Source: Escherichia phage HY02. Taken from it: a stretch of 64,000 bases of DNA. A program made the position numbers and the translations under genes. Below the pieces are notes generated by a model. That model was given only the letters and a program-made list of their open reading frames with translations, searched no databases and had not been told where the DNA came from. This document shows, piece after piece, positions 3,682 through 8,923 of the stretch (the stretch's first letter is position 1; each line of letters begins with the position of its first letter). The stretch lies in the sequence record KM092515, one strand, 5' to 3'.

Positions 3682-4230
3682 ATGAAGAAATTGATTCTAG
3701 GTTTGTGCTTAATGTTTACAGCACACTTATCTTATGCAGTTGACTGCCCAGAGCTATCAATTAGCCAAAAAGTGAACATGTTAAAAGCTTACCAGTATGG
3801 TGAGAATAACATGGGTAAAGGTTGGGGTATCACTCTAGCAGCTATAGCCTTACAAGAGTCAGAGTTAGGTCTGAAGGTAGAAAATAAAAAGACCCATGAC
3901 TACGGTATCTTCCAGAATCACTTGAAGACTGTTGTAAAGCGTAACAAAATTAGTCCTAATGTTGCTAAAAAGAAACTCTTAAAAGATTTTGACTATGCCG
4001 CAAAAGAAACACATAAAGAGCTTGAGTTTTGGACGAAGGTACATGGTCACCCAAAGTCAAAGAAGACTTTACAAAAAGTTTTAGCATCATATAATGCTGG
4101 GTATTCGTACAGAATCCCTAAAGCTAAGAAATACTCTCAAGATGTCTATAACAATATGAAAGTTATTGCTCAATGTGAATTTGCAACAAACATTTCTAAG
4201 GTAAACCATGAAAAAATTAAGAAAGTCTGA
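3682..4230 (+). CDS. secreted lytic transglycosylase (SLT domain)
   Basis: N-terminal signal peptide MKKLILGLCLMFTAHLSYA; SLT-like motifs QESELG (catalytic Glu-Ser), DYGIFQ and YNAGYSY. Confidence 0.55.
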   Translation: MKKLILGLCLMFTAHLSYAVDCPELSISQKVNMLKAYQYGENNMGKGWGITLAAIALQESELGLKVENKKTHDYGIFQNHLKTVVKRNKISPNVAKKKLLKDFDYAAKETHKELEFWTKVHGHPKSKKTLQKVLASYNAGYSYRIPKAKKYSQDVYNNMKVIAQCEFATNISKVNHEKIKKV

Positions 4231-4903
4231 TGAAGTCCTGTGTCATGCTTATGACTTACATCCTCATGAGTTAGGTCTTGATTCCTGTGTATGGACTCCA
4301 GAACAGTGCAGGGATTTTGAAGACACTGCAAGAGAAGTTGTATGTTCACTTGAAGAGTTCCACACATCAGAACCAATTGTGAACGTTGTGGACAAAGAGA
4401 CTGGACAAACTATAGGTGTAAGGCGTGATAGTTTAGTCATAGTCAATAAAGACCTTGTAGAAAAAGGTAACCTCATCTTAGCAGATATTGATGGCGTTCT
4501 TACAAATTTTAATCACGAAGATTGCTCAACGGAATTGACTGATGGGTCATTCTCACAGTACACTAATCTTCTTGACTCTGTAAGAGCAAAACCAACATAT
4601 GTTTTTAGTATTATTGATGCAATTGCTAATCATGCTGCCATTGGACTCTTGACAGCGAGAGGTGAATCTCAGAGAATACCTACTGAGATGTTTTTAAGGC
4701 ATAACATAGAGCATGATTACATGCTTTTTATGCGTGGTTTTGGAACTAACTCTATAAGTGCAGAAAGTTTAAAAGTGAGGATGATTCAGTCTTGCATTCT
4801 TCCTTATTTTAATATAGTATGCTTTATAGAAGATACAGAGAAGAATGTTCAGAAGGTAAACAGAATCCTTCCACACATTAAAACCATGTTAGTTAAACAT
4901 TGA
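4208..4903 (+). CDS. HAD-superfamily phosphatase-like protein
   Basis: motif I ADIDGVLTNF (DxDG[VT]L), motif II-like LLTARG and a downstream acidic ED; start uncertain because it overlaps the upstream gene. Confidence 0.4.
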   Translation: MKKLRKSDEVLCHAYDLHPHELGLDSCVWTPEQCRDFEDTAREVVCSLEEFHTSEPIVNVVDKETGQTIGVRRDSLVIVNKDLVEKGNLILADIDGVLTNFNHEDCSTELTDGSFSQYTNLLDSVRAKPTYVFSIIDAIANHAAIGLLTARGESQRIPTEMFLRHNIEHDYMLFMRGFGTNSISAESLKVRMIQSCILPYFNIVCFIEDTEKNVQKVNRILPHIKTMLVKH

Positions 4904-5389: not shown

Positions 5390-5414
5390 CAGGCTCCTTC
5401 GGGAGCCTTTTTCA
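5390..5414 (+). terminator. intrinsic terminator
   Basis: AGGCTCC-TTCG-GGAGCCT hairpin followed by TTTTTC. Confidence 0.7.
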
Positions 5415-5431: not shown

Positions 5432-5779
5432 ATGACATTTAAAGAGTTCTGTCAAGCCACTTTCATAATTGTTTTCTTAGTTGGGGCGGGTGTCTGGGGA
5501 GGATACTCTTACAGAGACTACCAAGTTGCTGAAGCTGAGTTAAGCAATGAGAAGCTAATAAGTGTTGCTAAAGATGCTTATCAGGAAGGATTAGTTACAC
5601 TGAGCACCAATTACAAAAATGATTTGAAAGATGTGCTTGCTAAGAATAAGCACACAAAAGAGGTACTAACATATGAAAAAACTAAGCCAGAGTTTTATAA
5701 TGTTTGTGTTACTGATAATTATGTCAGGGTGTTCAACGAACAAAGTGAGCAGTACATTCAAAAACTCCCAAGTAAGTGA
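5432..5779 (+). CDS. membrane protein, i-spanin-like (N-terminal TM helix, periplasmic helical domain)
   Basis: hydrophobic segment FIIVFLVGAGVWGGYSY then charged helical region; a lipoprotein ORF overlaps its 3' end in another frame. Confidence 0.4.
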   Translation: MTFKEFCQATFIIVFLVGAGVWGGYSYRDYQVAEAELSNEKLISVAKDAYQEGLVTLSTNYKNDLKDVLAKNKHTKEVLTYEKTKPEFYNVCVTDNYVRVFNEQSEQYIQKLPSK

Positions 5780-5942
5780 GAGTGATAAGTACACTCAAGA
5801 AGAATCACGGTATATCATCAAAGGCAACACAGGCAGTGATGTAGCAGCAGCACTTGAGTTCTACCGTGACGGCTTTTACCAGTGTACAATTAAAGCTAAT
5901 AACCTTATTGACATGATTTTATTAGGGAATAAGCAGCAATGA
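5673..5942 (+). CDS. putative lipoprotein, o-spanin-like
   Basis: signal peptide with lipobox IIMSGC; starts inside 5432..5779 in a different frame. Confidence 0.4.
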   Translation: MKKLSQSFIMFVLLIIMSGCSTNKVSSTFKNSQVSESDKYTQEESRYIIKGNTGSDVAAALEFYRDGFYQCTIKANNLIDMILLGNKQQ

Positions 5943-6519: not shown

Positions 6520-6835
6520 TGGAAGAGACTTTGTAGCCGTTTACTACGAGAAAGGTAAAGAAGTTGGTGTAGCACAAGTATCTTATGGCAATGGTAAGTG
6601 GCTATATGGAACAATCGCAGTAGTAGGGACAAGAAGTGATACAAAAACTTTTAAAGATTGTGTTGACCTTCTTGAAGAATCCATCCAGAATCATTGGTGT
6701 CTGATATGGATGACTGATAACGAAGTGATGGAGCGTTTCAAAAAGATTGATATCAACATTGACAGTATCGAGCATGTTGATTTATATGAGCTAACTGAGA
6801 AGGTAAACTATGAAAGTAATACTAGCCAGAGATAA
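6509..6835 (+). CDS. hypothetical protein
   Basis: ORF track start is 6470; internal ATG at 6509 abuts the upstream stop and is the more likely start. Confidence 0.4.
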   Translation: MQINGRDFVAVYYEKGKEVGVAQVSYGNGKWLYGTIAVVGTRSDTKTFKDCVDLLEESIQNHWCLIWMTDNEVMERFKKIDINIDSIEHVDLYELTEKVNYESNTSQR

Positions 6836-7043
6836 AAAGACCCGTAAAATTGTAAGTTCAGCAGTATTCATAGGGAGAGATGAAGTCATCCCGTTTGCAG
6901 GAGAAGATGTGTTAACTTACAAGAAGGTGATGAAACGTGAGTTCAGTAACCGTTTCCGTGACTTCTTCTCTGAACCATTGGAAGACTTTAAAAGTCGTTG
7001 TGGTAAAGGCATCATCATTCAAGAGGCAATTATTCATGGCTGA
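6810..7043 (+). CDS. hypothetical protein
   Basis: 77-aa ORF in a chain of coupled small genes. Confidence 0.4.
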   Translation: MKVILARDKKTRKIVSSAVFIGRDEVIPFAGEDVLTYKKVMKREFSNRFRDFFSEPLEDFKSRCGKGIIIQEAIIHG

Positions 7044-7236
7044 CTTCTGCAAAGACTGTTCTATCGAAATGTTCGGACGTGATACAGGTGACTTAAAAGG
7101 TCTTATCACTGAAGATGACTTTAAAGCTGGCTATGCAATGCCAGTAATCTGTGAAGGTTGTGGGTGCATCTGGGTAGACCACGAAGGACAGCGTGTAAAA
7201 CCTTCAGAAGATAAAGAATCTTGGGAGAGATGTTAA
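7037..7236 (+). CDS. small Cys-rich protein (possible zinc-binding)
   Basis: MADFCKDCSIE...ICEGCGC; ORF track start 6937 overlaps the previous gene, ATG at 7037 preferred. Confidence 0.4.
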
Positions 7237-8022
7237 ATGGGTATTGTAAAAATCATCAATGGTGATATCTTTGCTGCATTTGATAAAGGTAAGTTTGACA
7301 TCATTGGTCATGGTTGTAACTGCATGAACCTAATGGGTGCAGGTATCGCTGACAAGATTTCTAAACTTTACCCAAAAGCATATGAGACCGATACAGAAGT
7401 TTATCTCTATGCAGGTGGTATAGGCCACAAACCCTGTGAGAATTTACTAGGTAATTTCTCTGTAGCACGTTTAAAACAAGGTCGTATAGCTAACCTTTAC
7501 ACTCAGCTTAAGACTGGTAAAGATGCCCGATACAGTGCTTTAGAGTCATCTTTGAAACAGCTTAACAGATACTGTGAAGTTAACCAGTTGAAGAAGGTTG
7601 GTCTACCTATGATTGGTGCAGGTATCGGTGGACTTGACCCTCAAGCTGTCACAGTTATCATCAATCAGGTGATGAAGAGTGTAGATGTTTATCTGTATGT
7701 CTATGAAGGCGAGATGTACCACAAGTTACGCTCAGGTTGGAAGAACTACTGTGAACCAGAATACTTTGCAGGTGTAGCAGTGTTCACGGATAACGCAGTT
7801 ACCCTCTTCAGACGAAGAAAAGGTAAGATACATCAAAGTAACCCTCCGGTTGAAAAGATGTCTCTAGGTAATGCTCTAGTTACCCACCTGTCGAAGAGCA
7901 ATCACAGAATGGCTGTGACATTTGGTAGTGATGCAGAAGCTTATATCTATGCAAGAACTGATGAGGATATCGAGGCAATCTTCTCTTCACCAGAAGTTAC
8001 CTTCTTAGACGCAAAGAACTAA
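7237..8022 (+). CDS. macro-domain (ADP-ribose binding/processing) protein
   Basis: N-terminal GDIF...DIIGHGCNCMNLMGAGIADKI and GLPMIGAGIGG loops resemble macro-domain glycine-rich motifs; C-terminal about 110 aa of unknown fold. Confidence 0.55.
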   Translation: MGIVKIINGDIFAAFDKGKFDIIGHGCNCMNLMGAGIADKISKLYPKAYETDTEVYLYAGGIGHKPCENLLGNFSVARLKQGRIANLYTQLKTGKDARYSALESSLKQLNRYCEVNQLKKVGLPMIGAGIGGLDPQAVTVIINQVMKSVDVYLYVYEGEMYHKLRSGWKNYCEPEYFAGVAVFTDNAVTLFRRRKGKIHQSNPPVEKMSLGNALVTHLSKSNHRMAVTFGSDAEAYIYARTDEDIEAIFSSPEVTFLDAKN

Positions 8023-8087
8023 GAAACTCTGTAGAATATTCACAATAGACTAAGCCTTTCTTATCTGGTAAATTTTTCAGGTAAGGG

Positions 8088-8277
8088 GGGCTTTTTCATT
8101 TCAGGATTGTGCAGGTATATTTCTATAGAGAAATCTGTAGAGAAAATTTTGAACTCCAAAGAGAAAATTCATTTTCAAACTGTGCAGGTAATCTCCAAAG
8201 GGCTTTTTCATTTTCAAAACGTGCAGACCCCGCTCAGGTCGGGCAAGAAAAATCATTTTAGAATCGTGCAGGTAGGT
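8088..8277. repeat. four direct copies of a roughly 22-bp motif TCATTTTCAAANNGTGCAGGTA
   Basis: GTGCAGGTA/GTGCAGACC at 8109, 8182, 8221 and 8266, each preceded by TTTTCATTTT. Confidence 0.6.
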
Positions 8278-8298
8278 TTTTATAGAGAGCCAGACCAA

Positions 8299-8329
8299 CC
8301 CCTCTCCCCCTCTTACTCCCCCTCTCCCC
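8299..8329 (-). repeat. C-rich tract; G-quadruplex-prone on the minus strand
   Basis: CCCCTCTCCCCCTCTTACTCCCCCTCTCCCC gives four G-runs of 4 or more on the complementary strand. Confidence 0.5.
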
Positions 8330-8451
8330 AAAAGTCAAGAGAAAAATTTGTAGCGGATTGAAAAATAATTCTTGATTTGTGTTCTGTTTTGTGGTAGTCG
8401 TGTGCGCCCGTTTCATTACAGTTTCGCCAAAGATATTTTTAAAATTTTTCT

Positions 8452-8480
8452 TGACTCTTTGAACGGGGTTATCTAGTATT
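8452..8480 (+). promoter_or_regulatory. sigma70-like promoter for the small-gene array
   Basis: TTGACT, 17-bp spacer, TAGTAT, immediately before the conserved leader. Confidence 0.4.
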
Positions 8481-8485
8481 TGCAT

Positions 8486-8542
8486 CAACGGGGAGGGAAT
8501 GACCTTCCCCACTAAATAAAGTCCTAAACTGGAGATTCAAAA
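8486..8542 (+). promoter_or_regulatory. conserved 5' leader (type A): stem-loop GGGGAGG-N8-CCTTCCCC, ACTAAATAAAGTCCTAAACTGGAGATTCAAAA, then ATG
   Basis: near-identical copies before ORFs at 8543, 10328, 11198, 12419, 12981, 13578 and 13907. Confidence 0.6.
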
Positions 8543-8923
8543 ATGAAATATCGTGCGCCTAAATTCATCAACAAAGACAACTTTCGTAGCGTACTGGAGA
8601 AGTCACTTGATGAAAATTTCAAAGGTAATGTGATTGTTGTTCACTCGTTCAATTTTAAGTATGATATCAACGGGAATAAAATTAACCATTACACGGCAAC
8701 CATGTTAGATGGTACTCTTTCAAGTGAAAAAACAATTCTACATGCACTTGCTGGGCGTGGTAAAAACCTGATAAGCTGCAATAAGAGACGTTATCAAGGT
8801 GGCGCATATGGTTATGATGATGCTGTTTACCATCTTGAAAATATGGGCTATTCAGTGGAGAAAGCTGGAGCGTCTCAAATAATTGGTAGTGATGGTTATG
8901 TGACAATATTCAAAATTAACTGA
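8543..8923 (+). CDS. hypothetical small early protein
   Basis: ORF preceded by conserved leader with GGAG RBS. Confidence 0.65.
   Translation: MKYRAPKFINKDNFRSVLEKSLDENFKGNVIVVHSFNFKYDINGNKINHYTATMLDGTLSSEKTILHALAGRGKNLISCNKRRYQGGAYGYDDAVYHLENMGYSVEKAGASQIIGSDGYVTIFKIN

Follow-up and report, generated by a model that had tools for sequence, protein, structure and literature searches.

A stretch of 64,000 nucleotides (nt) from Escherichia phage HY02 (sequence record KM092515; this whole stretch is hereafter called the window) carries a gene whose product an earlier note, prepared from the DNA letters without database searches, had taken for a macro-domain protein. Does the gene encode such a protein, and if so, on what might the protein act? 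The open reading frame (ORF) at 7237–8022 is real and specifies 261 amino acids (aa); the same ATG start is found in all 27 of the distinct orthologous genes that were collected. The TAA of the upstream gene (7234–7236) immediately precedes the ATG at position 7237. No second macro gene was found in the window; this is the only one present. The product has two domains, whose limits are given with the other features in Table 1.

Table 1. Positions of the macro gene, its parts and nearby features in the window
Feature	Position	Strand	Basis or remark
Two-domain macro gene, 261 codons + TAA stop	7237..8022	+	Mechanical ORF list
Shine-Dalgarno-like GGGAGAG, 7 nt 5' of ATG	7223..7229	+	Read off sequence
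Macro domain, Tk.4/AdfM type, aa 1–156	7237..7704	+	Pfam, Foldseek, PADLOC, T4 Tk.4 identity
Motif HGCNCMNLMGAGIA, aa 25–38, predicted ADP-ribose-binding loop 1	7309..7350	+	Alignments
Invariant motif NLYTQ, aa 86–90	7492..7506	+	HMMER, BLASTP, MAFFT alignments
Motif PMIGAGIGGLD, aa 124–134, glycine-rich loop 2	7606..7638	+	Alignments
Linker helix, aa 157–169	7705..7743	+	DSSP on AlphaFold2 model (helix 158–167)
Orphan beta-rich C-terminal domain, aa 170–261, six strands and short C-terminal helix	7744..8019	+	Models
Upstream 66-aa CxxC...CxxCxC protein, zinc-ribbon-like, phrog_2210	7036..7236	+	Stop codon abuts macro ATG
Terminator-like hairpin, then T-run, 30 nt past macro stop codon	8052..8093	+	Consensus scan
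Terminator-like hairpin 5' of spanin genes	5391–5408		Consensus scan
i-spanin	5432–5779		N-terminal transmembrane segment
o-spanin, overlapping, other frame	5673–5942		Lipobox LIIMSGC
Polynucleotide kinase	4208–4903		Just upstream of spanin pair
182-aa protein, phrog_600	3682–4230		SLT transglycosylase match below threshold (19.2 bits, cut-off 21.3; E=9e-4)

Fold and family of the macro domain

A macro domain in the N-terminal half, for which the earlier note had proposed a profile search, was borne out by that means: Pfam PF01661 (Macro) matched aa 25–141 with 32.9 bits (E=6.7e-8), where the curated gathering threshold is 22 bits. The glycine-rich loops noticed at the outset are also present, as MGAGIA (aa 33–38) and GAGIGGLD (aa 127–134), and they are invariant in 19 homologues. 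An AlphaFold2 model of the full-length protein, for which 19 homologues served as input, contains the three-layer alpha/beta macro fold (predicted local distance difference test score 86.2; predicted template-modeling score, pTM, 0.86). When compared with Foldseek, the modeled residues 1–~156 superpose on solved macro domains, with the closest being TARG1 (E=1.8e-9; template-modeling score, TM, 0.83) and DarG (E=1.2e-8). There were 235 matches to the PDB at E<=1e-3; the top ones listed were all macro domains, and their target-normalized TM scores did not exceed 0.84.

To which macro family does the domain belong? Two phage proteins bear the name AdfM (anti-DarT factor macrodomain), namely Tk.4 of T4 (accession NP_049723.1) and gp104 of PhiKZ. 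The phrog_335 profile spans aa 1–260 of the HY02 protein with E=2.4e-112, and Tk.4 of a T4-like phage matches the same profile (E=1.6e-71). T4 Tk.4 and the HY02 protein are 34% identical over 160 aa in BLASTP (E=3e-24), a region that comprises the whole macro domain, and both have HGCNC, NLYTQ and GAGIG motifs. Among solved structures, a profile of the family found TARG1 (3.8e-11), Mycobacterium tuberculosis DarG (7.3e-9) and Thermus aquaticus (Taq) DarG (3.1e-7) as its best relatives; human TARG1 (also OARD1 or C6orf130, of the ALC1-like class) is thus the best PDB match by sequence as well as by structure. Yeast Poa1p, an ADP-ribose-1''-phosphate phosphatase, matched the profile over residues 1–60 only (E=5.8e-5), a region that holds the N-terminal strand and loop 1 (HxCNC...GxGIA). 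Judged by these matches, the protein is assigned to the macro superfamily and to the Tk.4/AdfM PHROG.

DarG models were the only ones in PADLOC and NCBIfam to match the protein. The PADLOC model did so with 2.8e-13, and NCBIfam NF048014 reached 48.1 bits over model positions 4–154 of 338, which is the macro half only; this score falls short of the 250-bit cut-off of that equivalog model. Indeed, the protein is an AdfM-like relative and not a DarG, because it has an invariant Gln at the position of the catalytic Lys and fails the curated DarG cut-off; in all, four features that define DarG are absent. There is a likeness of layout, in that DarG (DarG2) also begins with a macro domain, whose fold is among the two nearest solved ones, and continues with a second domain. 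However, the second domain of DarG is a DarT-binding domain of ~200 aa that is unrelated to the one found here, and the HY02 gene is adjoined by small phage genes rather than by darT (DUF4433). The same DarG model separates the two AdfM proteins: PhiKZ gp104 is DarG-like on it (138 bits), whereas Tk.4 (28 bits) and the HY02 protein are not, so gp104 and the Tk.4/HY02 type are different macro subfamilies despite the shared name. The HY02 protein is only 24% identical to gp104 (E=3e-4, BLASTP). Gp104 is, moreover, a single-domain protein that is imported into the phage nucleus.

Active-site motifs, the C-terminal domain and their distribution

The motifs that mark the family are HGCNC, N-L-Y-T-Q and G-x-G-I-[GA]-G, and all three occur in the HY02 protein. 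In loop 1, residues H25, G26, N28, C29, N31, M33–G36 and A38 are invariant among 19 two-domain homologues; N28 aligns with N23 of PhiKZ AdfM, and thus an Asn is conserved in the same loop of both phage orphan macrodomains. HMMER, BLASTP and MAFFT alignments place Q90, the last residue of NLYTQ, at the catalytic Lys position of TARG1 (K84, in LITK), of both DarGs and of PhiKZ gp104, which keeps the lysine in FPTK. The catalytic Lys of DarG (K80 in Taq DarG, motif FPTK) is accordingly absent, with Q90 in its place. In loop 2, G131 stands at the position of TARG1 D125, so that the K84/D125 dyad of TARG1 is lacking; an invariant Asp, D134, lies three residues beyond G131.

The Gln is not peculiar to HY02. 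It is shared by T4 Tk.4 and a Kolesnikvirus orthologue, and when 72 distinct proteins of the Tk.4 type were compared, all from viral contigs, [TS]Q was present in 67 and TK in none; [TS]Q lay outside the search pattern, but HGCNC and loop 2 lay inside it, and counts of those two are therefore biased. As the family is without the DarG/TARG1 catalytic lysine, its chemistry may differ from theirs. The Lys-to-Gln change is clade-wide, the genetically validated T4 AdfM included, and if the Tk.4 clade does hydrolyze thymidine-ADP-ribose, then, to judge from these alignments, it must do so without lysine and hence by a different mechanism. One possibility is that Tk.4-type macrodomains cleave the thymine-ribose bond by a lysine-independent, Gln/Asn-based mechanism.

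The remainder of the protein corresponds to the uncharacterized C-terminal extension of roughly 110 aa that the earlier note described: it comprises 105 aa (aa ~157–261), is coding, and has no Pfam match. The C-terminal domain was predicted better within the full-length protein, with block means per 10 residues mostly between 80 and 92, than alone (77); this difference and the pTM of the whole protein suggest that it packs against the macro domain in the model. Other than phrog_335, no PHROG matched the C-terminal domain, nor did any PDB sequence, and in a viral structure library it found only its own family (phage SUSP2). An exhaustive hidden Markov model (HMM) search with the domain among 1.84 billion representatives returned 11 matches; those that could be identified were members of the family, truncated pieces of such members, or chance repeat proteins. 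Two long repeat proteins (P0037 and P0038) were rejected as relatives, being chance beta-hairpin matches, and the long multi-stretch proteins P0033, P0034 and P0039 are presumed to be chance repeat matches also. When only the C-terminal 102 aa served as the query, a word-indexed search found no homologues; with the full-length query, it did.

Several identities for the domain were considered and rejected. It is not a homologue of the DarT-binding domain of DarG (hhalign probability 0.35%). It was not found as a separate gene beside standalone macro genes among 7,467 stop-to-stop segments from viral and other loci. Nor does its charge mark it as a conserved mimic of single-stranded DNA (ssDNA) or a nucleic-acid binder, for members of the family have net charges anywhere between -6 and +4. 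The domain is an orphan, seen only as a fusion partner of this macro domain and only in phages of the Ounavirinae type.

At 261 aa, the protein exceeds the single-domain length (~150–160 aa) of Tk.4-type AdfM; Tk.4 itself is a single domain of 155 aa. The ~260-aa form was present in 30 of 79 viral loci, all of them on contigs of ~84–90 kb, and nearly all of the others were standalone proteins of 140–186 aa. Two-domain proteins were found in Felixounavirus, Mooglevirus and SUSP2-type phages and in metagenomic relatives that keep the rIIA-rIIB-pnk synteny, and a 42%-identical two-domain allele occurs in other coliphages of ~88 kb (e.g., Si3). The tails vary by lineage. Erwinia phage vEam_PM_27 (Kolesnikvirus, L006:3498-4280; also L035 and L036) has an orthologue of 260 aa at the same locus after pnk and the spanin, and its ~105-aa tail lacks detectable similarity to the Felixounavirus C-terminal domain (hhalign probability 0.07%); either the tail was replaced or it diverged past recognition. 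In a few further lineages, the macro protein ends in a short acidic tail.

Pairwise comparisons revealed a marked difference in evolutionary rate between the two halves. In the same protein pairs, identities were 46–55% for the C-terminal domain against 76–81% for the macro domain, and 20% against 53%. Median ratios of nonsynonymous to synonymous substitution rates (dN/dS, by the Nei-Gojobori method) were 0.04 for the macro domain and 0.16 for the C-terminal domain in close pairs, and 0.17 and 0.47, respectively, in distant pairs. From these medians and identities, the C-terminal domain is constrained coding sequence that evolves three to four times faster than the macro half. Such fast evolution would fit an interaction surface in host-phage conflict, although it is no proof of one. 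By comparison, purifying selection on the macro half is strong (dN/dS 0.04), and the gene occupies the same locus in several Ounavirinae genera.

Is the macro gene a captured bacterial antitoxin? Tk.4-type macro genes were found at only seven loci in the genomes of 185,579 species (bacterial or metagenome-assembled). Two of the seven were truncated, and all had [TS]Q where the motif region was present. A search for bacterial Tk.4-type proteins linked to DarT gave none; in tblastn, no locus of the seven had a DarT-like neighbor. Because Tk.4-type genes are almost absent from bacterial genomes and stand beside a DarT-like gene at none of the seven loci, the Tk.4 type is a phage family and not a recently captured antitoxin.

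A proposed role against DarT2 and its alternatives

The earlier note had raised the reversal of host ADP-ribosylation, such as that by DarT, as a possible function, and this idea emerged as our leading hypothesis. It leads because the protein has a PHROG and motifs in common with Tk.4, the anti-DarTG2 factor of T4, and because, among curated defense or antitoxin models, only those of DarG matched it. We accordingly propose that the protein may be a Tk.4/AdfM-type macrodomain ADP-ribosylglycohydrolase that acts in phage counter-defense, likely by removing DarT2-type ADP-ribose from phage DNA; our belief in this proposal lies midway between doubt and acceptance.

The precedents are recent. According to a preprint of 2025, tk.4 is the single gene of T4 that is conditionally required on a DarTG2 host, and a clean knockout sensitizes the phage to DarTG2, for which the gene was named adfM (bioRxiv 10.1101/2025.11.20.689424). 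PhiKZ gp104, given the same name in 2026, can free an oligonucleotide in vitro of the ADP-ribose that DarT2 has attached, and the N23A change lowers this activity (PMC13309987); it has the proposed role of clearing DarT2 ADP-ribose off phage DNA, and of the two AdfM proteins, it is the only one that has been assayed biochemically. Robust hydrolysis of thymidine-linked ADP-ribose has been described for DarG and TARG1-type macrodomains (PMC12879935). TARG1 thus has on DNA the very activity that is proposed here, but it is a single-domain eukaryotic protein. The HY02 gene resembles tk.4 in being an orphan phage gene among small non-structural genes with no toxin adjacent. Tk.4, however, has a genetic anti-DarTG2 phenotype, and the HY02 protein adds a C-terminal domain of ~105 aa. 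This orphan and rapidly evolving domain distinguishes the protein from the characterized AdfMs.

The mechanism would be as follows. Some E. coli, Salmonella and Shigella hosts contain DarTG2, and infection frees the DarT2 toxin, which ADP-ribosylates thymidines of single-stranded phage DNA and blocks replication; these steps are established in the literature for DarTG2. The phage macro domain would bind the ADP-ribose in its glycine-rich cleft (the loops of aa 33–38 and 127–134) and cut the ribose-thymine bond to yield replicable DNA, as suggested by the kinship of the domain with T4 AdfM and by its resemblance to DarG and TARG1. With Q90 replacing the Lys of DarG and TARG1, catalysis would probably proceed via N28 and a substrate-positioned water, in the manner of MacroD. 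The C-terminal domain of ~100 aa, packed on the macro domain, would be a lineage-specific accessory module that most likely tunes the recognition of substrates or partners. It is mainly the absence of the catalytic Lys from the Tk.4 clade that keeps our confidence in the mechanism moderate.

The hosts of these phages carry the proposed target, as judged from the frequency of a single allele. E. coli STEC1012 (CP061270.1, 517–523 kb; L086) has a type I restriction-modification locus in which darT (DUF4433) and darG separate the S subunit gene from the R subunit gene. Of 5,426 complete E. coli genomes, 249 contain this darTG allele at >=95% identity, so that one allele alone reaches about 5% of them. 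A related complete genome, in which many genes are hypothetical, contains no ADP-ribosyltransferase annotation; this favors an antagonist encoded by the host over one encoded by the phage. Felixounaviruses are widely used for biocontrol and therapy, and knowledge of an AdfM-type counter-defense would aid the prediction of their host range.

Several points weigh against the DarT2 proposal. The protein is only 34% identical to Tk.4, it has Q90 and G131 at the positions of the TARG1 dyad, and its score on the DarG equivalog model is low, as described above. Its extra domain is absent from both characterized AdfMs, so the function may have shifted. Literature searches found experiments neither on the HY02 protein nor on its Felixounavirus homologues, and nothing relevant on Felixounavirus together with DarTG or macro domains. 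Even for T4 Tk.4, the removal of ADP-ribose from DNA was proposed from genetics and was not assayed (bioRxiv 10.1101/2025.11.20.689424). Finally, Iyer et al. argued that most phage macro domains target low-molecular-weight ADP-ribose derivatives, and Poa1p-like macro domains act on such small derivatives too (PMC9503650).

That prediction invites the alternative that the HY02 protein acts on small ADP-ribose derivatives and not on modified DNA, complementing the NAD+ salvage genes of the phage. It might then be an ADP-ribose-1''-phosphate phosphatase or an O-acetyl-ADP-ribose deacetylase, or it might hydrolyze the ADP-ribose-based signals, or the toxic metabolites, of TIR-, SIR2- or RES-type host defenses. 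The traditional annotation of the family as "phosphatase" or Poa1p-like favors this view, as do the Poa1p match to the first 60 residues of the profile and the presence, a few kb upstream of rIIA in related genomes, of genes for ribose-phosphate pyrophosphokinase and nicotinamide/nicotinate phosphoribosyltransferase. Yet Poa1p covers just the N-terminal third, whereas TARG1 and DarG cover the whole domain with better scores; the label "phosphatase", which the family inherited in GenBank from Poa1p, is probably misleading. Furthermore, the family has yielded a single genetic result, which is a phenotype with DarTG2, and the annotations nearby include no Tpt1/KptA, 2H or TIR-related partner. We consider a small-molecule substrate unlikely. 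A different macromolecule as the target, such as mRNA that a CmdT-type toxin has ADP-ribosylated, a host or phage protein that another ADP-ribosyltransferase has modified, or DNA that bears the mark of some other DarT-like enzyme, with the variable C-terminal domain setting the choice, strikes us as unlikely as well. Macro domains are versatile erasers that act on protein, RNA and DNA (PMC9503650, PMC12879935), the Lys-to-Gln change and the added domain set the protein apart from the proven thymidine-specific enzymes, and the variation of the tails by lineage (unrelated in Kolesnikvirus, short and acidic elsewhere) fits retargeting. Against this idea, no positive evidence points to any other target, T4 Tk.4 with the same active-site motifs gave a single and specific DarTG2 result, and the nearest folds are the DNA-active TARG1 and DarG and not those of the MacroD or PARG types.

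Might the protein bind ADP-ribose without cleaving it, as a reader, shield or sponge on ADP-ribosylated DNA or on an ADP-ribose-derived signal? TARG1 and DarG depend on the Lys that is Q90 here, and TARG1 D125 is here G131; both replacements would accord with such a function, and some homologue records read "high-affinity ADP-ribose binding module". However, MacroD-type enzymes hydrolyze their substrates without this lysine. The Asn that is important for the activity of PhiKZ AdfM is invariant here (N28), the Gln, His and Cys residues that surround the cleft do not vary, which speaks for a conserved active site over mere binding, and the stoichiometric shielding of many DNA lesions is implausible; taken with the other evidence, we find a purely binding role very improbable.

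With respect to the C-terminal domain, the fast-evolving, lineage-specific domains of Ounavirinae, which lack a known fold, are candidate specificity or toxin-binding modules. A bolder extension of the DarT2 proposal is that the C-terminal domain is a new module in a two-pronged anti-toxin that arose independently of DarG: the macro half would erase the modification, and the C-terminal domain would block a DarT-like transferase or dock on ssDNA or the replisome, tracking the toxin variants of the hosts. We regard this extension as quite unlikely.

Genomic setting and neighboring elements

The macro gene sits in a Felixounavirus genome. Over 200 genomes of this genus, whose members are FelixO1-like myoviruses that infect E. 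coli, Salmonella or Shigella, match the DNA around the macro gene at 93–97% identity, with Shigella phage JK55 as the top match (96.8%). A full-length homologue of the protein is encoded in 256 phage records, in which homologues are labeled "macro domain-containing protein", "phosphatase" or "O-acetyl-ADP-ribose deacetylase". The macro gene of one annotated relative lies downstream of rIIA, rIIB, the polynucleotide kinase gene and the spanin pair, all on the same strand. The early-region placement given in the earlier note is plausible from this position and synteny alone. The immediate neighbors are small phage genes in PHROG families of unknown function. The 66-aa phrog_2210 protein and the macro protein are likely to be co-translated; this pairing of genes is not kept in Kolesnikvirus or in the distant relative L003.

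The hairpin at 8052–8093 closes the transcription unit of the macro gene. No sigma-70-like promoter was seen between the other hairpin, at 5391–5408, and the start of the spanin genes, and therefore the spanin-to-macro block may be transcribed by read-through from upstream. The same sequence, TTTTTCATTTCAGGA, follows both of these hairpins, which bracket the block.

The macro gene is followed by a non-coding gap of 520 nt (8023–8542), in which three spaced units of ~34 nt, CTCCAAAGrG..TTCATTTTCAAAaCGTGCAG, stand at 8154, 8193 and 8238. A structured RNA was considered for this gap, but there was no Rfam match. In phages ekra, LF110P1 and VpaE1_ev108, a stretch of 1,801 nt around the macro gene aligns in two pieces across about 2,280 nt, which suggests an insertion polymorphism of ~480 nt somewhere in 6800–8600.

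At least eight copies of a repeated cassette of 80–100 nt lie between 8465 and 13920, each 5' of one of a succession of small plus-strand ORFs. Every copy includes a GC stem-loop, either GGGGAGGGAATGACCTTCCCC or GGGGGCTTATAG..TAAGCCCC, with a conserved leader, ACTAAATAAAGTCCTAAACTGGAGATTCAAAAATG, after it; in some copies, a -35 box of the TTGACA type comes before the stem-loop. The copies are similar to the cassettes of T4-type phages known as promoter-early stem-loop (PeSL) cassettes, and they probably mark a block of early genes that starts just past the macro gene.

Upstream of the macro gene, the adjacency of the polynucleotide kinase and spanin genes is the same as that of pseT and pseT.2/pseT.3 in T4. 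A T4-like phage has an SLT-domain protein (vs.1) two genes upstream of tk.4; this arrangement and that of the phrog_600 gene may be a remnant of shared synteny.

Genes of NAD+ metabolism were noted outside the window in related phages. Just upstream of rIIA, Escherichia phage vB_EcoM-Pr103Blw (L005, 69.8–72.6 kb) has a ribose-phosphate pyrophosphokinase gene beside one for nicotinamide/nicotinate phosphoribosyltransferase, and Felixounavirus relatives have an "NAD synthetase" and a nucleoside triphosphate pyrophosphohydrolase elsewhere in the genome. Together, these genes look like a set for the salvage or reconstitution of NAD+, and thus the phages may counter NAD-depleting defenses as well.

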